From: Candidatus Woesearchaeota archaeon
GTDB taxonomy: Archaea > Nanobdellota > Nanobdellia > Pacearchaeales > GW2011-AR1
Length of the DNA stretch: 37,551 nucleotides
Direction: 5' to 3'
Assembly: GCA_964538405.1 (NCBI GenBank)
Contig: CAZIET010000002.1
Location: 1 to 37,551, forward strand
Shown here: positions 3,099-28,987 of the stretch, in pieces
How positions within the stretch are numbered: the first letter of the stretch is position 1
How the letters are laid out: the number at the start of each line of letters is the position of its first letter
Position numbers and translations under genes: made by a program
Notes under the pieces: generated by a model
The model's database searches: none
Seen by the model: the letters and a program-made list of their open reading frames with translations, nothing else
What the model was told of the DNA's origin: nothing

Positions 3099-3515
3099 TT
3101 ATAAACTTTCAAAAGTATCTAATAGCTCCCTTGGAGAAATTATCCTGACCCTATTCTGCTTTTTGAGGCCCTTATCCCCTGAGAATATTGGGCACTTTAA
3201 CTTTAACGCAAGCGCCAGATAAGGTGCATCCTTAAAATTTAGTTTAAATGCCTCTTGCAATTTATCGGCAAACTCTGAAGAATGGACTACTACAATTTGC
3301 TCTTTTATGAAAGATAGTATCTCCAAAACATCTCTTTTTGGCAATTTTGTTTCATTTAGAATTCTTGTCATTTTGGAATCAAGTTCGGAAAACATAAATT
3401 CGGGAGATACAAATTCAAATTTTCTGAACAATTTATTTTTCTCAAATATCTCGAAACTATTGCCCCTATTTACAAGGGCTGAAAAGATCACATTCACATC
3501 AACTACGATCAGCAT
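3099..3515 (-). CDS. PIN-domain protein (VapC-like toxin candidate)
   Basis: MLIVVDVNVIFSAL ... DAPYLALALKLKCPIFSGDKGL shows the acidic residues in the positions expected of PIN. It is a paralog of 4216..4611. Confidence 0.7.
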   Translation of the reverse strand: MLIVVDVNVIFSALVNRGNSFEIFEKNKLFRKFEFVSPEFMFSELDSKMTRILNETKLPKRDVLEILSFIKEQIVVVHSSEFADKLQEAFKLNFKDAPYLALALKLKCPIFSGDKGLKKQNRVRIISPRELLDTFESL

Positions 3516-3527
3516 TTATACCCATCC

Positions 3528-3758
3528 TTATGACTTTGATAATCGCTCGTATCTTCTTGCAAGGGAAAGATTTATTTCATCAGACAATTCATCAGCTTTT
3601 TCTTCTGTTAATTTTGACTTGGAAACATTCTGCTTTGCTCGTGCTATTCTCTCTAATTCTTCGTTTATTTTCCTTGCTATAACTAACTGCCAGTTTATTT
3701 TTTTAGACATGGCAAGTTCTTTCAGTTCATCAGGTATCTTTACTCTTATCTCTACCAT
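3528..3758 (-). CDS. Small antitoxin candidate upstream of PIN gene
   Basis: 76 aa. An N-terminal VKIPDELKE strand followed by helices is RHH/CopG-like. It ends 12 nt before the PIN gene start. Confidence 0.45.
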   Translation of the reverse strand: MVEIRVKIPDELKELAMSKKINWQLVIARKINEELERIARAKQNVSKSKLTEEKADELSDEINLSLARRYERLSKS

Positions 3759-3985: not shown

Positions 3986-4219
3986 ATGGAAACAATTATT
4001 AAGATTCCGAAAGAACTAGAAACTGACTTAAGGAGGTTTGTTCATGAGCTTGGGTTTAGTGGAGACTCTGAGTTTGTTGAGGAAGCTGTAAAGGATAAAG
4101 TTCTGGAGTTAAAAAGGAAGGAATTTTTTAAAGTCAGCGACAAAATTGCACAGGCACTTAACGGAAAAGGAATTAATCACAGAGAAATGCTGGAAGATTT
4201 TGAAAAATCTAGAGAATGA
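3986..4219 (+). CDS. Small antitoxin candidate (RHH/CopG-like)
   Basis: 77 aa with an N-terminal IIKIPKELETDL strand followed by helices. ATGA overlap with the downstream PIN gene. Confidence 0.5.
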   Translation: METIIKIPKELETDLRRFVHELGFSGDSEFVEEAVKDKVLELKRKEFFKVSDKIAQALNGKGINHREMLEDFEKSRE

Positions 4220-4611
4220 AAATCAAGATTGCAGTGGATGCGACACCAATTGTTTCTGCGTTAATAGGTGGTGTGAGTAGAAGTGTTTTATTTAACCGCA
4301 GATTTGAATTTATCTCAACAGAATATACTTTTGAAGAAGTAAAAAAATATACTGGAATAATATCCAAAAAATCAGGGGTTAGTGCAGATGAAGTTAGAAA
4401 GGCATTAAACTTTCTTCCAATCAGGGTATATCCAAAAAAGCACTATAAAAAAGATATTCAAAAAGCCAATAAAATTATCGGTAAAATAGACAAAAAAGAT
4501 GCTGATATCTTAGCTTTAGGCCTTAAAGAAAAATGCCATATTTGGAGTGAAGATAAAGATTTCAGGAACAATAAAGAAATAATGTTAATAAGAACTAAAG
4601 ATTTAATCTGA
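4216..4611 (+). CDS. PIN-domain protein (VapC-like toxin candidate)
   Basis: KIAVDATPIVSAL ... DADILALGLKEKCHIWSEDKDF. It has the same family pattern as 3099..3515. Confidence 0.7.
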   Translation: MKIKIAVDATPIVSALIGGVSRSVLFNRRFEFISTEYTFEEVKKYTGIISKKSGVSADEVRKALNFLPIRVYPKKHYKKDIQKANKIIGKIDKKDADILALGLKEKCHIWSEDKDFRNNKEIMLIRTKDLI

Positions 4612-5925: not shown

Positions 5926-6462
5926 ATGTATCACATGATACAAAAATGTAGCCTAATTGCTGTTCTTGAAGTGTTTTTTAAAGAGCCTACTTCTATACAT
6001 TTTGTAAGAGAGATAGGAAGAAAAATCAGCTTAGCGCAGACATCTGTTAGAAACCATATAAAAGAACTTGAAAAAAACGGCCTTGTTGTGAGGCAGGAAT
6101 CAAAACCTTTCGATGGGTTGGTTGCAAATAGGGAAAATGAAAAATTTATTTTTTATAAACGGGTCTACAATATGCACTCTCTTTGTGATCTAAAAGATTC
6201 AATTGTTCAATTAATGCATCCAAGAGCGATAATCGTTTTTGGTTCTTATCAGAGAGGAGAGGATATGGAGAAGAGCGACATAGACATTCTTGTCTTGTCA
6301 AGGGTCAAGAAAGAAATAAATCTCAAAAAATTCGAGAAATTGTTGAATAGAAAAATAAATATCAATTTTGTGAATAATTTAAAGAATTTAGATCTTCCTT
6401 TAAGGATTAATATTTTGAGCGGACTGACATTATATGGGGGGATAAATGAGGGAGATATTTAA
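5926..6462 (+). CDS. wHTH + minimal nucleotidyltransferase (MNT) protein
   Basis: An N-terminal winged-helix-like segment is followed by GSYQRGEDMEKSDIDILV (GS-x10-DxD). Confidence 0.7.
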   Translation: MYHMIQKCSLIAVLEVFFKEPTSIHFVREIGRKISLAQTSVRNHIKELEKNGLVVRQESKPFDGLVANRENEKFIFYKRVYNMHSLCDLKDSIVQLMHPRAIIVFGSYQRGEDMEKSDIDILVLSRVKKEINLKKFEKLLNRKININFVNNLKNLDLPLRINILSGLTLYGGINEGDI

Positions 6463-6847
6463 AATAAGCAAGGACCTCATTAGGGCAAAGGACTTATACA
6501 AAACTGCCAAGGATAGATTATATGAAATAATTCCCCTCTTCCCAAAAGATAAGTCTTATAAAATTATTGAAGAGTATTATGAGATTATGGTTCAGCTAAT
6601 AACATCAATTATGTATTCAGATGGTTACAAAACCTTAAGCCATACGGGATTAATCCAATATTTAGCTACAAATTATACTGAATTTAGCAGGAATGAATTA
6701 AACACGATTGACATTTTGAGAAAATTGAGGCATGGAATAGTTTATTATGGGAAACAAGCGGAGAAAGAATTTCTTCTTAACCACGAGGATTCAGTAAAAG
6801 AACTCATAGACAAATTAATTAAAATTATAGAATTTAAGATAAAATAA
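6446..6847 (+). CDS. HEPN-like helical partner of the MNT gene (putative)
   Basis: The 133-aa sequence looks all-helical. RKLRHGIVYYG resembles the R-x(n)-H HEPN motif, though the spacing is short. It overlaps the MNT gene by 17 nt. Confidence 0.45.
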   Translation: MREIFKISKDLIRAKDLYKTAKDRLYEIIPLFPKDKSYKIIEEYYEIMVQLITSIMYSDGYKTLSHTGLIQYLATNYTEFSRNELNTIDILRKLRHGIVYYGKQAEKEFLLNHEDSVKELIDKLIKIIEFKIK

Positions 6848-9775: not shown

Positions 9776-10967
9776 ATGCTTATCGGCTTAGTTCGGAAAA
9801 CCTAGTGTAGGCAAATCAACTTTCTTCAAGGCAGCAACTTTGGCGGAAGTAGCAATAGCACCACATCCTTTTACCACAATAAAGCCAAATCATGGAATTG
9901 GATATGTTGAAGTTGAATGCATTGAAAAGGAATTTAACACAAAGTGCAACCCGGCTCATGGCTTCTGTATTAATGGGAAGAGATTTGTTCCTGTTGAATT
10001 AATGGATGTGGCTGGACTTGTGCCTGGAGCAAGCGAAGGAAAGGGTTTGGGAAACAAATTTCTTGATGATTTAAGGCAGGCAGATGCTTTCATACAGATA
10101 ATAGACATAGCCGGAATGACTGATGCAGAAGGAAGAACTGTCGCAGAAGGAAGCTATGATCCTGCAAACGATATAAAATTTCTTGAAGATGAACTTAACA
10201 AGTGGTATTATGGGATTTTGATAAAGGCATGGAAGAGTTTTGCAAAGAAATCAGAGATAGAAGACACCAATTTTGCCGAGGCTGTTGCAAAACAGTTTTC
10301 AGGATTGAAAATAGATGACGATCAAGTAAAAGAAGTATTAAGAAAATTGAATTTCAGGGAAAGACCAAGTATGTGGAGTGAAGATCAGCTGATGAAATTC
10401 TCCGCTGAATTAAGAAGAGAAAGCAAGCCAATGATAATTGCCGCAAACAAGATTGACGCAAAGAATGGAAAATCAAACTATGAAAGAATTGTAAAACAGT
10501 TTCCTGAATTGAAAATAATTGCCTGCTCTGCAGATTCAGAATTGGCTTTAAGAGAGGCGGCAAAAAGAGGTCTGATTAACTACATTCCTGGAGAAAACAA
10601 ATTTGAAATTACTGGAGAGTTGAGCGAAGGACAAAAAGCAGCCCTTGAAAATATAAAGGAAAATATTTTAGAGGCATATGGTAGCACTGGAGTGCAGCAA
10701 ATACTGAATGGAGCTGTTTTTGATTTATTGAATTACATTGCTGTTTTCCCTGCAAGTGCAAACAAAATGAAGGACAGCAAGGGAAGAACATTACCTGACT
10801 GCTTCTTGATTCCTGGAGGTTCCACTGCGTTGGATTTTGCTTTTTTTCTGCATACTGATTTTGGAAAGAATTTCATAAGGGCAATAGACGCAAGGACAAA
10901 GAAAGCATTGGGAAAAGATTACTTGTTGAAGAATAGGGATGCATTGGAAATAGTGACTTCCAGATAA
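9776..10967 (+). CDS. Obg-like GTPase of the YchF/Ygr210 type with a C-terminal TGS-like domain; reading frame interrupted by a 1-nt frameshift near 9794
   Basis: ggaggtga-N5-ATG at 9776 gives MLIGLV, then a stop. Frame +1 from 9795 gives [32 protein letters not shown]... (Walker A plus G2 region), continuous with the track ORF 9840..10967. NKID is the G4 motif. The C-terminal [10 protein letters not shown] is TGS-like. Confidence 0.8.
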
Positions 10968-12734: not shown

Positions 12735-13067
12735 ATGAAAACTGAAGTGCCTTATGTAAATTATAGCGAAGTAAAAATCGGAGATATAATCACTGATGGA
12801 AATGATATTTTTGCAATAGTAAGAGCTTCGGATGTAATGTATCCTGATGAATATGTCATAGACTGCTTAGTCATATACAAATTAACTTCTTGGGAAACTC
12901 TAGAAGAAATAAAAAAAAGAAATTATTCATTTCACGCGGAAGATAGGTCTCTTATAGTAATAAACCATTTTGGACACTCTTTTGGAAGATTGACTGAAGA
13001 ACAAGCAAAGGACTTTTTCAAAGGTAAACTTAGAATAGAAAGATCAATTAGACTTATTGCTAAGTAG
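12735..13067 (+). CDS. Hypothetical protein
   Basis: 110-aa ORF with coding-like composition in a gap not explained by other genes. Confidence 0.4.
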   Translation: MKTEVPYVNYSEVKIGDIITDGNDIFAIVRASDVMYPDEYVIDCLVIYKLTSWETLEEIKKRNYSFHAEDRSLIVINHFGHSFGRLTEEQAKDFFKGKLRIERSIRLIAK

Positions 13068-13101: not shown

Positions 13102-13605
13102 ATGAAAAGGGTTGTTGTAAAAAAAGGAAAAAAGGTCATAACGAGAGAAGGAAGTTTTGTAATAAGATTGTCTAACAGACTGATAAAAGAATTGAAACCT
13201 TATTCCAAAAAAATCCAGGTTGTTGGAAGCATAAGAAGAAAAGAGAAAAATCCGGTGGATATTGACATTGTTTTAATTCCAAAAGATAAACAAAGACTTG
13301 AAAACTTCATGAAAATGAAAGGAAAATTCTTACAAGGAGGAGAACATGAATCTTCATGGAAAATAGAAGGGGTAAAAGTTGAATTATATTACACTACTGA
13401 AAATGAATTGGGTGCAGCATTGCTTGCTTACTCTAGTAGATTTGGGGCGGGAATTGGATTAAGAGTTGTTGCATTAAGAAAAGGATTCAAGTTGAATTCT
13501 CACGGATTATTCGACAGAAGGACTGGGAAGAGAATTGCGGGAAAAACAGAAACAGAAATCTATCATGCTTTGGGGAGAGAATACAAGGAGCCTTGGGAAA
13601 GATGA
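13102..13605 (+). CDS. Minimal family X DNA polymerase (palm + thumb only)
   Basis: VVGSIRRKEKNPVDIDIVL is the GS-x-RR...DxD motif. ALLAYSSRFGAGIGLRVVALRKGFKLNSHGLF and TETEIYHALGREYKEPWER align with the pol beta thumb and C-terminus. At 167 aa it is about the size of ASFV Pol X. Confidence 0.75.
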   Translation: MKRVVVKKGKKVITREGSFVIRLSNRLIKELKPYSKKIQVVGSIRRKEKNPVDIDIVLIPKDKQRLENFMKMKGKFLQGGEHESSWKIEGVKVELYYTTENELGAALLAYSSRFGAGIGLRVVALRKGFKLNSHGLFDRRTGKRIAGKTETEIYHALGREYKEPWER

Positions 13606-13814
13606 AAATAAAAGTAAATGTCCATACCAACTCTTCCCAAGAGAAGATAAACAAAATTGACGACCACAACGTTGAAGTTTGGCTTAAAGAAAAAGCAATT
13701 GATAATAAGGCAAATATTAAATTACAAAAGATTCTTAAAAAATATCTGAATGCCGAAACCGTAAAAATAATCTCGGGCTTTACTTCAAAAATTAAACTTG
13801 TGGAGTGCATATGA
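13602..13814 (+). CDS. DUF167 (YggU-like) protein
   Basis: KVNVHTNSSQEKI...VEVWLKEKAIDNKANIKLQKILKKYL...VKIISGFTSKIKLVE fits the DUF167 pattern (..GKAN..L...L.....v.i.sG.tsr.K). ATGA overlap with the Pol X gene. Confidence 0.65.
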   Translation: MKIKVNVHTNSSQEKINKIDDHNVEVWLKEKAIDNKANIKLQKILKKYLNAETVKIISGFTSKIKLVECI

Positions 13815-14182
13815 AAGCGCTTTCTTTAAAGCAGCCTTATGCCGAATTGATTGTTTCCGGAAAGAAAAGCATTGAGTTAAGAAAATGGAAGACAAATTTC
13901 AGAGGTAAATTCTTGGTTCATGCTTCAAAAATACCTGATTACGAAGCCATGGAAAAATGGGGTTTTAAGTCTCTTCCGACTGGTTTTATAGTGGGAAAGG
14001 CAGTTTTGGCAGATGTAAAAGAGTATAAAAACAAAGAAGACTTTGAGAAGGATATGGGCAAGCACGTCGCTGATTCGTCATTTGGGAGTTTCGGCTTTAT
14101 TTTAAAAAATGCCGAAAGGATAAGTCCGTTGATTCCAGCAAAGGGAAATTTAAATTTTTGGGAACACAAAGATGAAATATGA
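13811..14182 (+). CDS. ASCH-domain protein
   Basis: MKALSLKQPYAELIVSGKKSIELRKW is the typical ASCH N-terminus. ATGA overlap with the upstream gene. Confidence 0.7.
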   Translation: MKALSLKQPYAELIVSGKKSIELRKWKTNFRGKFLVHASKIPDYEAMEKWGFKSLPTGFIVGKAVLADVKEYKNKEDFEKDMGKHVADSSFGSFGFILKNAERISPLIPAKGNLNFWEHKDEI

Positions 14183-14561
14183 GGCTGCGCCAGATTTACA
14201 AATGAAAGTAGATGAAATAGCAAGAATTCTATTTCCTCACGTGGTGATGGAAAGGGTAAAAGTTTTCAGGAGCTATGGAAGCGTTTCTAGGAACACAATC
14301 GCAAGATGTCATGCTCTTGGGAAGTTAATGCAAAATGCTCTTGGAGTTAAGGCACATTATGCAATTGAATTCTTGACAGAAAATTTTGATAGATTAAGCG
14401 AAAAGGAAAGGACTAAGGTTATGGTTCATGAATTAATGCATATTCCAAAAAGTTTTGGCGGGGGATTCAAGCATCATGATTTTGTTTGCGATAAAAATGT
14501 GAATTTCTTTACAAGGCAATTTGAAGAATATAAAAAGAGAAAAAATGGATATATACTTTAA
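14172..14561 (+). CDS. Putative zinc metallopeptidase (HExxH; SprT/Wss1-like, uncertain)
   Basis: VMVHELMHIPKSFGGGFKHH provides HExxH plus downstream His residues. 11-nt overlap with the ASCH gene. Confidence 0.55.
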   Translation: MKYEAAPDLQMKVDEIARILFPHVVMERVKVFRSYGSVSRNTIARCHALGKLMQNALGVKAHYAIEFLTENFDRLSEKERTKVMVHELMHIPKSFGGGFKHHDFVCDKNVNFFTRQFEEYKKRKNGYIL

Positions 14562-14874
14562 AAAGAAAAAAATCAAAATCCCTGTAAAAGAAGTTCCTCT
14601 TTACAGCACTGGTTTGATGTTTAGGACGAAAAATACAAGCAATCTTTATTTCAATCTTCGAGGGAAAAATATTTCTTTGACTTCCTGGTTTGTTTTCTTT
14701 CCATTTCTGGTTTTATGGGTTGACGAAAGAAGAAAGGTTGTAGATTTCAAAGTAGTAAGACCATTCACAATGGTAATTAATTCACAAAAAAAATTTCATT
14801 CCATAGTAGAAGTTCCGTTGAATATTAAAAACGTTAGGATTTTTGGATTCTTCGTCGGAAAAAGAAAGATTTAA
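14545..14874 (+). CDS. DUF192-like protein
   Basis: GLMFR ... LVLWVDERRKVVDF ... HSIVEVPLN resembles the DUF192 pattern (GLM.r ... D..f.d..g.iv ... vlE). The ATG at 14545 is preferred to the TTG at 14521. Confidence 0.5.
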   Translation: MDIYFKKKKIKIPVKEVPLYSTGLMFRTKNTSNLYFNLRGKNISLTSWFVFFPFLVLWVDERRKVVDFKVVRPFTMVINSQKKFHSIVEVPLNIKNVRIFGFFVGKRKI

Positions 14875-14924: not shown

Positions 14925-15050
14925 ATGGGAAAAGTAATTCTAAAAAACGCGATAAAAAGGCGACCTGGACATCTTTACTACATCGACGGCAAAGGAAATG
15001 TCTGCGAGGCAGTTATGGCTAGAGGCGGAAAGAAGAAAAAGAAGAGATAA
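14925..15050 (+). CDS. 41-aa basic small protein (not in the ORF track)
   Basis: aaggaggt is followed 6 nt later by the ATG. Product: MGKVILKNAIKRRPGHLYYIDGKGNVCEAVMARGGKKKKKR-stop. A T-rich tract follows. Confidence 0.4.
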   Translation: MGKVILKNAIKRRPGHLYYIDGKGNVCEAVMARGGKKKKKR

Positions 15051-15085
15051 TTCCTCTAATTTGTTTTTTATTTTTTAATAAATTT
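15051..15085. terminator. T-rich bidirectional terminator region between convergent genes
   Basis: ttcctctaatttgttttttattttttaataaatttttatttttta contains oligo-T runs, which serve as termination signals in archaea. Confidence 0.35.
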
Positions 15086-15904
15086 TTATTTTTTACTTAA
15101 AATCATCCTGACTGTGAGTTCGTCGTCAGGGTTTGTTATTTCCGGAGACTTGTAATCGCTTATGTACACTTTCATTGTCATTTTTCCTTCTTTGGTTAGT
15201 TGGCTTAAATTATCCGGCAGCATAGATTCAATATCCCTGTTACCTTGATGTTCTTCCTTGAATTTGATTACTTTTTTGTTTAATTCTTCCAAAATATTTT
15301 TGTTCAAGTAGAGCAAATTCATATTACATAAGCTTTCCTCATTCAATCCATGTGAAGCTAAAGTTTCCTTACTTATTCCCTTGAACTCCTTCATTTCAAT
15401 AACATTTTTATTTTTGTCAACTATGATTATTCCCCTATTAACAGTTCCTGTTTCTGGAAGGCTGTTTTTCAAGATATATCCGACAATTGCAGGATTTTTA
15501 CTTATTTTAGAATGATTGACTAATGTTTGAAAAGCTTCCTCCCCATATATTTCATCTCCATTTGCAGCCACAAATTCATCATCAATTAAATCAATTGCAG
15601 AACAAAGTGCATCCTGTGTTCCCCATGGCCTGTTTCTTTTTTCAGGATCAAATTTTTGCAGAGCATATTCTACTGGAATTCCTTTGTATTCATTTCCAAA
15701 TTTAACCTTGAAAGGTTTCTCAGTTTTATTTCCGACAACAAAGATAATTTTGTCAAATGAGTTGGTTTTAAGTGCCTGGTCTAAAGAGTATTCAATTAAG
15801 GTCTCTCCATTTGGGCCAACTTGAGCGAATTGTTTTATTTTTCCTCCGAAACGGCTGGACATTCCCGCAACCATATAAAGAAGTGCCAGTGGCATATTGA
15901 GCAT
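15086..15904 (-). CDS. Sugar-phosphate nucleotidyltransferase family protein
   Basis: The N-terminal VAGMSSRFGG (G-x-G-x-R type pyrophosphorylase loop), PWGTQDAL and NGDEIY motifs are present. 272 aa. Confidence 0.7.
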   Translation of the reverse strand: MLNMPLALLYMVAGMSSRFGGKIKQFAQVGPNGETLIEYSLDQALKTNSFDKIIFVVGNKTEKPFKVKFGNEYKGIPVEYALQKFDPEKRNRPWGTQDALCSAIDLIDDEFVAANGDEIYGEEAFQTLVNHSKISKNPAIVGYILKNSLPETGTVNRGIIIVDKNKNVIEMKEFKGISKETLASHGLNEESLCNMNLLYLNKNILEELNKKVIKFKEEHQGNRDIESMLPDNLSQLTKEGKMTMKVYISDYKSPEITNPDDELTVRMILSKK

Positions 15905-15945
15905 AATTTAAAATGTTTTATAAAGATTTGTTGTATTTTTTGTTT

Positions 15946-16935
15946 ATGGCAACTGGACTTGGCTTAGAGTGCACTTCGCATACATTGGGGGTAGGTATTA
16001 TTAGAAATGGAAAAATATTGGCTAATGAAAAGGATTCTTACACTACTGAGCATGGGGGAATTATCCCTATGGAGGCCGCAAAACATCACGAAAGAGTTTT
16101 TAATGAAGTGTTGAATAAAGCTTTAGAGAAATCAAAAATAAAATTAGAACAATTAGATTTTATCAGTATATCAAATGCTCCGGGGCTTGCACCGTGTCTT
16201 GTTGTTGGCATGAAAAAAGCAAAAGAACTTTCCAGAAAATTGAACAAGCCGTTAGTCCCTGTAAATCATTGTATTAGTCATTTGGAAATAGGAAGAATAA
16301 CTGGGGCAAAAGATCCGGTGATGTTGTATGCTTCAGGGGCAAATACCCAAATAATAGCCTATGCCGGAGGCAAATACAGAATTTTTGGAGAAACTCTTGA
16401 TATTGGCATTGGAAACTTTCTTGACAATTTTGCAAGATATTTGGGAATTGGTTTTCCTGGAGGACCAAAGGTGGAGAAATTAGCCTTGAAAAGCAAGAAT
16501 TATATTGAATTGCCTTACAAAGTAAAAGGAATGGACATTGCACTTTCTGGAATATTAACTAACTTAAAACAGAAAGTTGAAAGCAAGAATTTTAAGAAAG
16601 AGGATTTGGCTTACTCTACACAGGAAACTGTTTTCGCTATGCTTGTTGAAGTTTCCGAAAGGGCCATGGCACACATTGGGAAAAAGGAATTATTACTTGG
16701 AGGAGGTGTGGGATGCAACAAAAGATTGCAGGAAATGTGCAGAATAATGTGCAAGGAAAGAAATGCCAAATTTTTTGTGCCTGAAAATTCATTGCTCGTT
16801 GATAACGGGGGAATGATAGCTTTCACAGGAGAACTAATGTTTAAAGCTGGCGTTAAATATTTACCAAGAGATTTGAGCAAAGTGGATATAAAACCAAGAC
16901 AAAGAACTGATGAAGTGGAAGTTACATGGCGCTAA
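15946..16935 (+). CDS. kae1: tRNA N6-adenosine threonylcarbamoyltransferase Kae1
   Basis: GLECTSHTLGVGI..., VNHCISHLE (the metal-binding HxxxH) and GGVGCNKRL are present. ASKHA fold length. The ATG at 15946 is preferred to 15913. Confidence 0.9.
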   Translation: MATGLGLECTSHTLGVGIIRNGKILANEKDSYTTEHGGIIPMEAAKHHERVFNEVLNKALEKSKIKLEQLDFISISNAPGLAPCLVVGMKKAKELSRKLNKPLVPVNHCISHLEIGRITGAKDPVMLYASGANTQIIAYAGGKYRIFGETLDIGIGNFLDNFARYLGIGFPGGPKVEKLALKSKNYIELPYKVKGMDIALSGILTNLKQKVESKNFKKEDLAYSTQETVFAMLVEVSERAMAHIGKKELLLGGGVGCNKRLQEMCRIMCKERNAKFFVPENSLLVDNGGMIAFTGELMFKAGVKYLPRDLSKVDIKPRQRTDEVEVTWR

Positions 16936-25069: not shown

Positions 25070-25534
25070 ATGAAGAACTTAAAACAAAAGGTAGCAAGTG
25101 CTTTAGCAGGATTAGGGATGAGTTTAGTAAGTGCTTTAAATTTTTCTCAGGCTACTGAAGCAAGATTTCCTTTTAATGATGTAACTAAATGCTACCCCTT
25201 GGAAGTATATGCTGGTTTCCAAAGAGGTATAGTAGAAGGTACTGCTAGAACCCCAAGATATGATATTGAAGGTCTTGCGATTATTAGGGATCTTGACGGA
25301 GATAAGGAGATTGACGAAGTAGTATTTCCATATTTAGATACGCCAAATGGTCCATTAAAAATTATTAAAAGGGCGCCCGGTAGAAAAAGTCCTTCATATA
25401 AACCTATGAATCTTCCCCCACATTATGGATTTGATTTAGATATGTATGGTCTTGATAACTTGGGAAAAGTTGTAATAATGAATATCTTTCAGGATGAGTT
25501 TGATCATACTGGGATGAAAGGATGTATTAATTAA
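25070..25534 (+). CDS. Secreted protein with CYP...DxDGD Ca-loop-like motif; paralog of 28984..29283
   Basis: A signal peptide is followed by KCYPLEV, IIRDLDGDKEIDEVVFP, PLKIIKR and a terminal GCIN. These align with SCYPSVV, VIDADGDNIVDQAFFP, KLIKISK and the terminal FCD of 28984..29283. Confidence 0.55.
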   Translation: MKNLKQKVASALAGLGMSLVSALNFSQATEARFPFNDVTKCYPLEVYAGFQRGIVEGTARTPRYDIEGLAIIRDLDGDKEIDEVVFPYLDTPNGPLKIIKRAPGRKSPSYKPMNLPPHYGFDLDMYGLDNLGKVVIMNIFQDEFDHTGMKGCIN

Positions 25535-26352
25535 CTCTTTTCTTTCAATTCATAATATTCATCAAGAGTCAACTGCTTTGAAGGAGCTTTGTTTCCCCAT
25601 GCAGGACAAATTGGTTTGAATTCACACCAATGGCATAACAAAGATTTTGTTGGAGCAAATTCCTTTGTCGATTCAATTTCCTTTATCAGATTTATAGTAT
25701 CTTCTTTCAGATTCTTCAGCTGCTCATCTGTTCTTTTTGAGTGGATTCTTTTATTGAATGAGAGGTAATGCCAAATTAGAATCACTTTTTTGTCTTCACC
25801 ATACATTTCCTTTATTGCAATTGAATACAATGCCAATTGCCTGTCATTCTCAATGGCTTCATCAGTTGGAAGAGTATTTGATGTTTTGTAATCATGAACT
25901 TCATATTCTTCTGTTTTTGTGTTGTAGCAAAGCCTGTCAATAAACCCCCTAATCTTGTATCTACCCTCTTTGTCTAAATTAATTGTAATTTCTTTTTCAA
26001 CTTCAATTGTGTCCTCATCAAAAGGCTTGTTCTTTAGATAATAGTTAATCAAGAATTGGATCCCTTTGTTGAAATAATCATCCTTGGTCATGTTCTTCTT
26101 CACTATTGGGATCTCTTCTTCAAAATCCTCTTTCCAGTTCTGAGCATAGTTCACTATCACTTCATCGATTTCCGGGATTCTCTTGTTCTTTACCTGTATG
26201 TAGAGCCATTCCAAAGTCCTGTGCACTGAGCTTCCCAAATGGGATTCAATTGTTTTTTCTATATCAGGAATTATTTTGTCTATATACCTAAACTTGAACT
26301 TCAGCTTGCATTGTTCAAACGTGCTCAATCTTGAATGAGAAAATACCTCCAT
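25531..26352 (-). CDS. PD-(D/E)XK nuclease of the Cas4/RecB/AddB type with a four-Cys cluster
   Basis: The N-terminus is SHSRLSTFEQCKLKFKFRYI, GFIDRLC...YEVHDYKTS supplies the D...D/E-x-K motif, QLALY follows, and the C-terminus is CHWCEFKPIC. One N-terminal Cys plus CxxCx5C is the Fe-S arrangement seen in Cas4. Confidence 0.75.
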   Translation of the reverse strand: MEVFSHSRLSTFEQCKLKFKFRYIDKIIPDIEKTIESHLGSSVHRTLEWLYIQVKNKRIPEIDEVIVNYAQNWKEDFEEEIPIVKKNMTKDDYFNKGIQFLINYYLKNKPFDEDTIEVEKEITINLDKEGRYKIRGFIDRLCYNTKTEEYEVHDYKTSNTLPTDEAIENDRQLALYSIAIKEMYGEDKKVILIWHYLSFNKRIHSKRTDEQLKNLKEDTINLIKEIESTKEFAPTKSLLCHWCEFKPICPAWGNKAPSKQLTLDEYYELKEKS

Positions 26353-28543: not shown

Positions 28544-28987
28544 ATGACAAGGGTAAGTGCGGGATTATTGATGTTTCGAATTAAAGACAAGTTGGAAGTT
28601 TTTCTTGCGCATCACGGAGGTCCATTTTGGAAAGATAAGGATATTGGATCATGGACAATTCCAAAGGGAGAGGTTGAGAAAGGAGAGGAATTATTAGAAA
28701 CTGCGAAAAGAGAATTTGAAGAAGAAACAGGAATTGTTCCAGAAGGGGAATTTATCTTTCTTGGAGATGTAAAACAAAAATCAGGAAAGATTGTCCATGC
28801 ATGGGCTTTCAAAAAAGACTGGAGCGGACTTTTGAGACTGAATTATATTACTGTTGAAATAAGTGGAAATAAAATGAAGATCCCTGAGATTGACAAGGCA
28901 CAATATTTTACAATTGAAAAGGCAAAGGAAAAAATAAATCCTGCGCAAAAAGAATTCTTGGAAAGATTGGAGAAATTAATTTTCTAA
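28544..28987 (+). CDS. NUDIX hydrolase
   Basis: The Nudix box is GEVEKGEELLETAKREFEEETG. Confidence 0.85.
   Translation: MTRVSAGLLMFRIKDKLEVFLAHHGGPFWKDKDIGSWTIPKGEVEKGEELLETAKREFEEETGIVPEGEFIFLGDVKQKSGKIVHAWAFKKDWSGLLRLNYITVEISGNKMKIPEIDKAQYFTIEKAKEKINPAQKEFLERLEKLIF

Follow-up and report, generated by a model that had tools for sequence, protein, structure and literature searches.

DNA polymerase X of African swine fever virus (ASFV Pol X) is usually portrayed as a uniquely minimal, virus-specific polymerase. The Pol X of Thermus thermophilus (Tth PolX; 3AU2/3B0X) has the same palm and C-terminal subdomain within 575 aa that also comprise 8-kDa, helix-hairpin-helix and PHP 3'-5' exonuclease domains, and the eukaryotic members pol beta, lambda, mu and TdT share the catalytic fold and motifs, with an 8-kDa dRP-lyase domain or BRCT in addition. 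To our knowledge, biochemical studies have not yet covered any Pol X of archaeal origin. A broad survey of the family was built on RefSeq, with Euryarchaeota accounting for 288 of its 296 archaeal sequences, and a term search of that survey found no mention of a DPANN mini Pol X clade (PMC9226535). Literature searches for Pol X of DPANN, Pacearchaeota or Woesearchaeota returned nothing relevant.

The window analysed here, a 37,551 nt stretch of a Candidatus Woesearchaeota contig, contains at 13102-13605 on the forward strand an ORF of 167 aa, hereafter mini Pol X, with a palm and a C-terminal "thumb" subdomain. The palm and thumb signatures quoted in a preliminary description of the window, VGSIRRKEKNPVDIDIVL and ALLAYSSRFG...LRKGFKLNSHGLF...EIYHALGREYKEPWER, were both recovered from this ORF, together with the motif KVELYY. 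The thumb profile PF14791 (DNA_pol_B_thumb) matched with an E-value of 6.1e-15 (55.3 bits, Pfam cut-off 25), and the palm profile PF14792 scored 18.4 bits, under its curated Pfam cut-off of 25; the palm was recognised by structure, not at the sequence-profile threshold. In phmmer queries against PDB sequences the best match was Tth PolX (residues 163-309, E 1e-11), slightly above ASFV Pol X (E 2.6e-10), which gives no indication of an ASFV-specific kinship. The AF2 model (pLDDT 93.3, pTM 0.87) consists of two subdomains only, and its top 50 Foldseek matches in PDB were all Pol X enzymes, led by Thermus PolX (3au2/3b0y; E 5e-13, TMq 0.81, rmsd 2.1 Å, 29% identity) and followed by pol lambda, mu, beta and TdT. 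Viral Pol X enzymes were hit as well. Within the 167 residues the 8-kDa lyase, the helix-hairpin-helix DNA-binding subdomain and the PHP domain are all absent, as is BRCT.

By sequence and modelled fold, the product of 13102-13605 is a genuine minimal family-X DNA polymerase, its activity being predicted, and the ASFV-like layout of palm and C-terminal subdomains proposed for it was upheld by Pfam, phmmer, AF2 and Foldseek alike. Neither profile nor structure comparison placed it in a non-polymerase nucleotidyltransferase (NTase) family, the outcome that had been named beforehand as counting against the assignment. The MNT, DUF6932 and NTP_transf_2 NTases scored below their Pfam thresholds, and both the presence of a thumb domain and the outcome of the fold search rule them out.

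Homologues of mini Pol X form 768 protein clusters, nearly all of 154-182 aa, which establishes the gene as real. Identity was 64-89% among the best 120 of the 768 clusters and 53-73% across 60 GTDB species loci. The hosts are about 60 species-level genomes of Pacearchaeota, Woesearchaeota and Nanoarchaeota (DPANN), by and large at 60-75% identity, a large cellular clade, and the earlier remark that such an enzyme is unusual for a cellular genome was therefore overstated. Clade members bear the JGI automatic annotation "DNA polymerase (family X)", and the clade is a further member of an already known kind of Pol X. A viral or mobile origin of the present copy was considered and rejected: phage records reached at most 26% and viral contigs at most 41% identity, and the setting is a chromosomal backbone that includes gyrase, aIF2-gamma, aIF5B and ribosomal proteins.

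D53, D55 and E94 are the predicted catalytic residues of mini Pol X, with GS-RR at residues 42-46 as its triphosphate motif and R121 as the counterpart of pol beta R283. The palm motif reads G42-S43-I44-R45-R46 ... D53-I54-D55. In 27 aligned clade members, G42, S43, R45, R46, D53, D55, E94 and R121 were invariant. In an alignment of about 150 representatives, between 145 and 147 of the 147 rows without a gap kept the positions G42, S43, R45, R46, D53 and D55. E94, the Glu of KVELYY, is aligned with the third-carboxylate Asp of the Tth and ASFV enzymes, to which D256 is equivalent in pol beta; the preliminary description had drawn attention to this Glu, and it proved invariant across the clade. 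Among the approximately 150 representatives the third carboxylate was D in 98, E in 35, N in 11 and Q in 4, and the DDE triad is present in viral mini Pol X too. As judged from these alignments, DDE is a common natural variant of the putative active site among the relatives, and the canonical third position is given as "aspartate or rarely glutamate" by Prostova et al. 2022 (PMC9226535).

In pol beta the D256E substitution lowers activity about 1000-fold (PMC5499815), and the Glu of mini Pol X may therefore entail slow or different chemistry. The crippling effect of D256E could even be taken to mean that mini Pol X is catalytically weak or inactive, with a structural role in end binding, bridging or ligase recruitment, and resembles the noncanonical prokaryotic Pol X that lost polymerase activity; proteins of this type are described in the survey (PMC9226535), and Ku-ligase-linked relatives of mini Pol X carry DDN triads. 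We regard this as very improbable. The three acidic positions and the triphosphate Ser and Arg are invariant despite 53-73% identity across the 60 GTDB species loci, which argues for a working active site, and the DDE triad recurs in independent lineages, ligase fusions and phages included. Moreover, the Pol X proteins hitherto described as inactive retain the PHP nuclease as their activity, a domain that mini Pol X does not have.

In the same set of about 150 representatives, the DPANN clade stood out by replacing near-invariant residues: pol beta Y271-F272-T273-G274 corresponds to A-Y-S-S, and N279 to Gly, and the nascent base-pair pocket is therefore predicted to be atypical. In pol mu and TdT the Y271 position is Gly, and a small residue there accompanies ribonucleotide use and terminal-transferase activity. 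The clade-specific swaps in the pocket (TG to SS, N279 to G, and Y271 to A, the last recalling pol mu and TdT), Glu in place of a catalytic Asp, the presence of TdT and pol mu among the good fold matches, and the fixed position within a translation-related backbone would all suit a protein that has the Pol X fold but serves as a specialised nucleotidyltransferase, such as one that extends RNA or DNA 3' ends without a template or with ribonucleotides, its function tied to the nearby translation and tRNA genes (YchF, Kae1, ASCH). This is unlikely in our assessment, given that the putative template-contacting R121 and the GS-RR and DxD motifs are invariant, that a loop-1-like insertion is missing, and that the best superposition is with the gap-filling Tth PolX. 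Furthermore, relatives are fused to DNA ligases and not to RNA enzymes, UDG or ligase neighbours occur in five genomes, and the backbone genes are independent of Pol X, as set out below.

It is possible, if rather doubtful, that the DPANN mini Pol X clade constitutes a functionally distinct polymerase and not a shrunken pol beta. If so, the Glu third ligand, the Ala-Tyr-Ser-Ser stretch and the Gly-for-Asn replacement could relax sugar or base selectivity, and gap filling with ribonucleotides or with high error, or terminal transferase activity, might follow. Gap recognition might then differ from both that by the 8-kDa domain and that by the ASFV 5'-P pocket, and in these ultra-small archaea the enzyme might be the sole polymerase dedicated to repair.

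The range 13102-14874 holds five co-directional overlapping genes, Pol X, DUF167, ASCH, an HExxH zincin and a DUF192-like gene. The preliminary description had counted a six-gene operon here, a number that is reached only by including the co-directional ORF at 12735-13067 upstream or that at 14925-15050 beyond the range. The gene overlaps listed in it were correct, given ATG starts: ATGA at 13602-13605, ATGA at 13811-13814, 11 nt at 14172-14182, and 17 nt at 14545-14561. Of its domain labels, three were supported by scores above the Pfam gathering cut-offs, all on the forward strand: DUF167 (YggU/PF1765-like, 70 aa, 13602-13814; PF02594, E 6.6e-11; TIGR00251, E 1.9e-11), the ASCH-domain protein (123 aa, 13811-14182; PF04266, E 2.7e-9; phrog_3193, E 1e-33), and the HExxH peptidase (zincin, "PhageMetallopep", 129 aa, 14172-14561; PF18894, E 5.4e-20). 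The DUF192 label of the fourth (109 aa, 14545-14874, forward strand) stayed below the cut-off with PF02643 (E 0.017), next to an NCBIfam match to PRK03760 (E 1.3e-7); the assignment is nevertheless reasonable, because 22 of 25 members of the DUF192-like family match PF02643 (best E 8.8e-8). PHROG searches with the mini Pol X, DUF167, zincin and DUF192 proteins gave no match for any of them, and by sequence no protein of solved structure was a significant match to the zincin or to the DUF192-like protein.

The last co-directional gene of the string is a conserved basic ORF of 41 aa (MGKVILKNAIKRRPGHLYYIDGKGNVCEAVMARGGKKKKKR) at 14925-15050 on the forward strand, with AAAGGAGGT just upstream and T-runs after it at about 15055-15100. 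It had no Pfam family, and a DNA-level match to it recurred 3' of DUF192 in 87 locus hits, its counterparts being called as genes of 55 and 67 aa in L067 and L064, respectively. Directly upstream of Pol X, a lineage-specific forward-strand ORF of 110 aa (12735-13067) had no Pfam or PHROG family, and homologues were absent from all 60 Pol X loci. The idea that it is an 8-kDa or HhH domain that has split off was rejected for want of any family match and of homologues in the other loci. The string is flanked by two anchors, both on the forward strand: a YchF/YGR210-like GTPase upstream (9840-10967; Pfam YGR210-like_G4 and TGS) and Kae1/TsaD downstream (15913-16935; Pfam TsaD), the latter followed on its 3' side by L7Ae, S28e, L24e, GyrB and GyrA. 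The immediate gene context of Pol X consists of translation and tRNA genes, not of repair genes. The overlapping start and stop codons suggest that Pol X may be co-transcribed with the backbone from DUF167 to Kae1; remarks on promoters and terminators rest on reading AT-rich and T-run sequence of an archaeal organism. Searches of the window for RNA genes and structured RNAs found none.

The syntenic backbone of the region is YchF, DUF167, zincin, DUF192, small basic ORF and Kae1, and in DPANN of the Pacearchaeota/Woesearchaeota type Pol X takes a fixed slot in it, between YchF and the block of DUF167, zincin, DUF192, small basic protein and Kae1. Where the flank was long enough (42 loci), YchF preceded Pol X in 38, and Kae1 was downstream in 43 of 50. 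Seen from Pol X, in species-level loci, the zincin followed downstream in 45/50 and DUF167 in 35/50. Together with the co-direction and overlap of the genes, these figures could favour the proposal of the preliminary description that the whole string from Pol X through DUF167, ASCH and zincin to DUF192 is one DNA-repair module. In such a module a SprT/Wss1-like protease would, for instance, clear DNA-protein crosslinks before Pol X fills the gap. Seen from the zincin, however, only 8 of the 39 intervals that were complete from YchF to the zincin contained Pol X, whereas DUF167 was present in 29, of which 24 were without Pol X, and 50 of 61 loci had DUF192, the constant partner of the zincin, next to it on the 3' side. 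Conservation of the partners with one another thus does not hold in both directions. ASCH is a variable insert that lies just before the zincin and was present in only 4 of the 60 loci with Pol X, and marine relatives have the order YchF-zincin-DUF192-Kae1-L7Ae-S28e-L24e with neither Pol X nor DUF167. In one locus (L010), a gene of 689 aa separates Pol X from DUF167-zincin.

The zincin itself contains the motif H86-E87-L88-M89-H90 followed by H101/H102, all invariant in the alignment of homologues; the homology search found 2632 proteins. Its HExxH core is common to SprT/SPRTN/Wss1 proteases and to archaeal minigluzincins (selecase), with marginal similarity of fold: for the AF2 model (pLDDT 85), Foldseek returned selecase as the best match (E 0.026) and, scoring slightly lower, SPRTN 6mdx (E 0.078, probability 0.95, TMq 0.53), with none at or below 1e-3. 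A faint SprT-like Pfam signal appeared in 4 of 25 zincin relatives, below threshold and with a best E-value of 0.025, while on the zincin of the window PF10263 (SprT-like) and PF08325 (WLM) had no match and PF18894 was the only one. As distinct from SprT, SPRTN and Wss1, the zincin belongs to PF18894, carries no DNA-binding domain and is too short at 129 aa for those of SPRTN/Wss1, and does not depend on Pol X.

The one-sided co-occurrence largely refutes the reading of the string as a repair module, which we now consider improbable: DUF167, zincin and DUF192 persist without Pol X, and the backbone runs on into Kae1, L7Ae, S28e and L24e. Judged from gene order, the backbone predates Pol X, has a wider distribution and is independent of it, and the genes after Pol X are a putative housekeeping block that mostly exists without Pol X. 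Loci without Pol X are scattered over the YchF tree, where at least 12 state changes are needed; repeated loss of Pol X is probable, and would be in keeping with a dispensable repair enzyme. Gene overlap in DPANN genomes can accordingly mean frozen housekeeping synteny and not a functional module, which corrects an over-reading.

Links of mini Pol X to DNA repair were found outside the string. In L005, L006, L012 and L016 Pol X has a divergent UDG gene (PF03167, E 1.3e-32) at a distance of 35-70 nt, an adjacency that is confined to one clade and thus probably reflects a single event, and in L039 the divergent neighbour is a LigD-like ligase of 313 aa. The closest relatives outside the clade include fusions of ATP-dependent ligase and mini Pol X with DDD or DDE triads, and such fusions point to a logic of gap filling followed by sealing. 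More distant relatives form Ku-ligase-mini-Pol-X clusters in Nitrososphaerales, and these may not be polymerases, because their third position is Asn (DDN). Inside the window, a ligase or Ku was sought and not found.

Taken with the predicted fold and the analogy to characterised Pol X, mini Pol X is probably an active, template-directed and dispensable repair polymerase for short gaps, seated in a fixed syntenic slot, a reading that we hold with moderate confidence. Binding of the two metals would fall to D53 and D55 jointly with E94, binding of the triphosphate to S43 and R46, and contact with the template to R121. The enzyme would fill gaps of 1 nt, or short ones, with clean 3'-OH and 5'-P ends, as could arise from a glycosylase/AP-lyase and an AP endonuclease, and the nick would be passed to a separately encoded ATP-dependent ligase. 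ASFV Pol X follows the same route of gap filling and handing over in viral base excision repair. The clade offers for study a small polymerase, well folded by prediction and naturally "DDE", with which the minimum protein needed for gap filling, the role of Glu at the third metal site, and the way in which archaea of reduced genome complete base excision repair could be addressed.

Compared with ASFV Pol X (pO174L, 174 aa; PDB 1JAJ, 5HRB), mini Pol X has the same minimal architecture of two subdomains at nearly equal length, and the two are collinear over residues 6-172 and 8-166, respectively. Common to both are GS-RR, DxD, the template Arg (R127 in ASFV Pol X, R121 here) and a C-terminal Y-[KR]-x-P, and neither has the Asn by which the minor groove of the incoming nucleotide is checked, ASFV Pol X having Leu123. 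The one is viral and the other cellular and archaeal, and the third carboxylate is Asp100 in ASFV Pol X but Glu in mini Pol X. The 5'-phosphate pocket R125/T166/R168 of the ASFV enzyme (PMC5330486) is not conserved, its positions being, in ungapped alignment, G119/E160/K162 in mini Pol X, with G119 an invariant Gly. Of the ASFV His115-Arg127 platform and the hydrophobic Val120/Leu123, represented here by A109, R121, F114 and G117, the Arg alone is kept.

Mini modules related to this one are found in large phages, as fusions with ligases and within Ku-ligase clusters. In large phages and giant viruses they are 160-200 aa ORFs that have a DDD, DDE or DDN triad and 27-41% identity, and, like the ligase-Pol X fusions of metagenomes, they keep the usual x-x-T-G and Asn, which the DPANN clade does not. 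In contrast to these viral and metagenome modules, the DPANN clade is chromosomal, occupies a fixed syntenic slot and is much more tightly conserved. The ASFV-type architecture of 170 residues stands as a strongly conserved chromosomal gene across a DPANN radiation.

The window comes from the chromosome of a DPANN archaeon with a low GC content of about 34%, and the 167-aa product of 13102-13605 (+) is a family-X DNA polymerase (Pol X), identical to a protein in an NCBI Pacearchaeota-type MAG contig (GCA_016181865.1). All motifs quoted for it in the preliminary description were present. The Pfam "thumb" profile, i.e. the C-terminal subdomain called "finger" in the ASFV papers, scored 55 bits (cut-off 25), and the palm profile 18 bits, which is below threshold. 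The best PDB sequence match was the Thermus PolX core (residues 163-309, E 1e-11), and ASFV Pol X (E 2.6e-10) was collinear from residue 8 to 166. The AlphaFold2 model (27 homologues as input; pLDDT 93.3, pTM 0.87) had family-X polymerases as its best 50 PDB fold matches (50/50), led by Thermus PolX (TM 0.81, rmsd 2.1 Å) and followed by pol lambda, mu, TdT and beta, and giant-virus, entomopoxvirus and roughly 175-aa Pol X proteins were matched in the viral library. Sequence and fold both bear out the initial family-X assignment, and neither places the protein in a non-polymerase NTase family. Neither an 8-kDa domain nor a helix-hairpin-helix DNA-binding subdomain is present.

The Pol X gene is followed on the same strand by DUF167 (13602-13814, +; Pfam 6.6e-11) and ASCH (13811-14182, +; Pfam 2.7e-9), each joined to its predecessor by an ATGA overlap, a 129-aa HExxH peptidase (14172-14561, +; PF18894 "PhageMetallopep", 5.4e-20; 11-nt overlap with ASCH), hereafter the zincin, and a DUF192-like gene (14545-14874, +; 17-nt overlap). 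The DUF192-like protein itself was sub-threshold in Pfam (E 0.017), with PF02643 matched by 22 of 25 relatives. Co-transcription of the string is likely, as the genes overlap. What had been called a six-gene operon comprises five genes between 13102 and 14874; the next conserved co-directional gene, a basic 41-aa ORF (14925-15050, +; MGKVILKNAIKRRPGHLYYIDGKGNVCEAVMARGGKKKKKR), falls outside that range. It has a strong Shine-Dalgarno-like AAAGGAGGT on its 5′ side and T-runs on its 3′ side. In 87 hits to related loci a matching ORF stands after DUF192, in many cases with an extended Lys/Arg tail. No Pfam family was found for this ORF; its product may be a small protein, so far unannotated, that binds nucleic acids or associates with the ribosome. 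No homologue of the upstream 110-aa orphan ORF (12735-13067) was present in any related Pol X locus compared. The ASCH protein matched phrog_3193 (PHROG, unknown function) with an E-value of 1e-33, exceeding its Pfam ASCH score by far, and therefore has close relatives in viruses of prokaryotes.

Searching 5.8 billion proteins for Pol X homologues gave 768 clusters, the best 120 of which were almost all 154-182 aa long and 64-89% identical, their named members being Pacearchaeota, Nanoarchaeota or Woesearchaeota. Many clade members already carry the JGI label "DNA polymerase (family X/10)", and 60 GTDB species representatives have the gene. One contig labelled Candidatus Dojkabacteria bacterium (CPR; JAFCCB010000023.1) had the archaeal YchF - mini Pol X order at 64% identity, its label probably reflecting a MAG binning error. 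Six close relatives of the clade (P0136, P0139, P0140, P0145, P0146 and P0193; E about 1e-42) had N-terminal extensions of 150-280 aa, opening with the common motif G-W-x-G-E-S-Y-R-H-x-L-A-A-K-G-I followed by coiled-coil-like sequence, in which no Pfam domain was found.

Residues G42, S43, R45, R46, D53, D55, E94 and R121 were invariant in the clade alignment, as were the C-terminal R159, K162, P164 and R167, and this invariant active site makes a catalytically dead scaffold highly improbable. In Thermus and ASFV Pol X, the third catalytic Asp occupies the alignment column of E94. When 1.8 billion representatives were searched with a profile, 6857 relatives emerged; the best 150 of these (153 aligned rows) had Asp (98), Glu (35), Asn (11) or Gln (4) at the third carboxylate position, and the DDE triad is thus a recurrent natural variant and not peculiar to the window gene. 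Replacing D256 by Glu costs pol beta about 1000-fold in activity (PMC5499815), and Prostova et al. accept "Asp or rarely Glu" as canonical (PMC9226535). The pocket is altered as well: pol beta Y271-F272-T273-G274 corresponds to A-Y-S-S in the clade, and the N279 position is Gly. Outside the clade these positions hardly vary: in the 145 ungapped rows of the same best 150, T was found in 138 and G in 140, and N279 is matched by Asn in 123 rows.

In the gap-filling mechanism that we infer, D53, D55 and E94 would bind two metals, S43 and R46 would hold the triphosphate, R121 would contact the template, and a lysine-rich N-terminal hairpin (KKGK, nearly invariant) together with the basic C-terminus would make up for the absent DNA-binding domains. 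Since the protein has no dRP-lyase domain, it would depend on an AP lyase and an AP endonuclease to clean the gaps beforehand and on a separate ligase to seal the nick, as in ASFV base excision repair. We consider this mechanism, taken as a whole, somewhat probable.

Links to DNA repair were found in related genomes. Four loci carried a divergent family-4-type uracil-DNA glycosylase (PF03167, 1.3e-32; L005 7472-7963, L006 7425-7997, L012 5728-6246, L016 7426-7926, all -), and one a divergent 313-aa LigD-like ATP-dependent ligase with a KxDG motif (L039 7015-7953, -), in each case as an insertion between YchF and Pol X that lies 35-70 nt 5′ of the latter. The closest relatives outside the clade (E about 1e-41) included ATP-dependent DNA ligase - mini Pol X fusions with DDD or DDE triads; in metagenomic P0141, P0142, P0155, P0180 and P0195, ligase adenylation and OB domains share one polypeptide with a mini Pol X placed C-terminally or internally, and P0195 (1069 aa) also has a GIY-YIG nuclease domain. 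More distant relatives (30-35% identity) in Nitrososphaerales MAGs form clusters of Ku (PF02735), an ATP-dependent DNA ligase of ~285 aa and a 180-200-aa mini Pol X, in that order (L061 6086-8468, L062 6190-8504, L063 5497-8462). These clusters are NHEJ-like, with Pol X replacing the usual primase-polymerase; their Pol X has Asn at the third catalytic position (DDN) and, judged from that residue, may be non-catalytic. The altered pocket and a context of translation genes would also suit an atypical nucleotidyltransferase acting on RNA or single-stranded ends, but retention of the template Arg, together with the links to ligase and glycosylase, makes this unlikely.

Seen from Pol X, the order YchF - Pol X - DUF167 - zincin - DUF192 - Kae1 was very stable: YchF lay 5′ in 38 of 42 loci, and the zincin, DUF167 and Kae1 lay 3′ in 45, 35 and 43 of 50, respectively, with DUF167 directly adjoining in 23 of 50. 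The partners, however, persist without Pol X. In marine relatives the order is YchF - zincin - DUF192 - small ORF - (NTP-transferase) - Kae1 - L7Ae - S28e - L24e - GyrB, and both Pol X and DUF167 are lacking. In a zincin-seeded survey of 80 metagenome loci, the 39 complete YchF-to-zincin intervals contained Pol X in 8 and DUF167, sometimes duplicated, in 29, and DUF192 followed the zincin in 50 of 61 loci. ASCH occurred in just 4 of 60 Pol X loci, and in L010 a 689-aa gene parts Pol X from DUF167-zincin. Co-occurrence is accordingly one-sided, the order being stable as seen from Pol X, so that the five-gene repair module proposed at the outset is quite unlikely; DUF167, the zincin and DUF192 do not serve as accessories to Pol X. 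The window keeps the same backbone between YchF (9840-10967, +) and Kae1/TsaD (15913-16935, +), and compared with the minimal marine arrangement its YchF-to-zincin interval additionally holds ATCase, TrmB, the orphan ORF, Pol X and ASCH; DUF167 is a backbone gene elsewhere, though missing from that arrangement. Pol X-negative loci were interspersed with positive ones in a neighbour-joining tree of YchF (at least 12 state changes), which fits repeated loss of a dispensable Pol X from one ancestral slot.

In the zincin, HELMH, H101/H102, C46 and H47 were invariant and C31 and C106 nearly so. It had no significant relative among PDB sequences, and its structure model (pLDDT 85) gave no Foldseek match at or below 1e-3, the best being M. 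jannaschii selecase (0.026) and human SPRTN 6mdx (0.078, TM 0.53). Among 25 relatives, just 4 matched a SprT-like profile, none with an E-value better than 0.025. A role as DNA-protein-crosslink protease is conjectural, and one coupled to Pol X is disfavoured because the zincin is independent of it.

Elsewhere in the window, genes 5′ of the backbone are probable toxin-antitoxin pairs (3099-3515, -; about 3528-3758, -; 4216-4611, +; 5926-6462, +; 6446-6847, +), i.e. PIN with ribbon-helix-helix, a second PIN_2, and a minimal NTP_transf_2/Polbeta nucleotidyltransferase overlapping the gene of its 133-aa partner (MNT-HEPN-like). A Cas4-like PD-(D/E)XK nuclease (25531-26352, -; PF12705, 4e-33), around which no CRISPR context was seen, and a NUDIX hydrolase (28544-28987, +) adjoin aIF2-gamma, 3′ of gyrase A.

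Our literature searches for DPANN, Pacearchaeota or Woesearchaeota Pol X found nothing, and the broad prokaryotic survey of RefSeq genomes, 97% Euryarchaeota on its archaeal side, states that no archaeal Pol X is characterised (PMC9226535). R125, T166 and R168 of the ASFV-specific 5′-phosphate pocket, and His115 of the same enzyme, are described for ASFV Pol X (PMC5330486); in ungapped alignment these correspond to G119, E160, K162 and A109 of the window protein, respectively, so the ASFV way of gap recognition is not conserved, and the template Arg (ASFV R127, window R121) is the only compared ASFV residue retained. Large viral contigs commonly contained 160-200-aa mini Pol X ORFs, at 27-41% identity; the minimal architecture is therefore not unique to ASFV, nor is the window's clade a recent viral import. 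The DPANN clade, uncharacterised yet already auto-annotated, belongs to the known minimal Pol X, of which its unusual active-site signature could make it a true variant.
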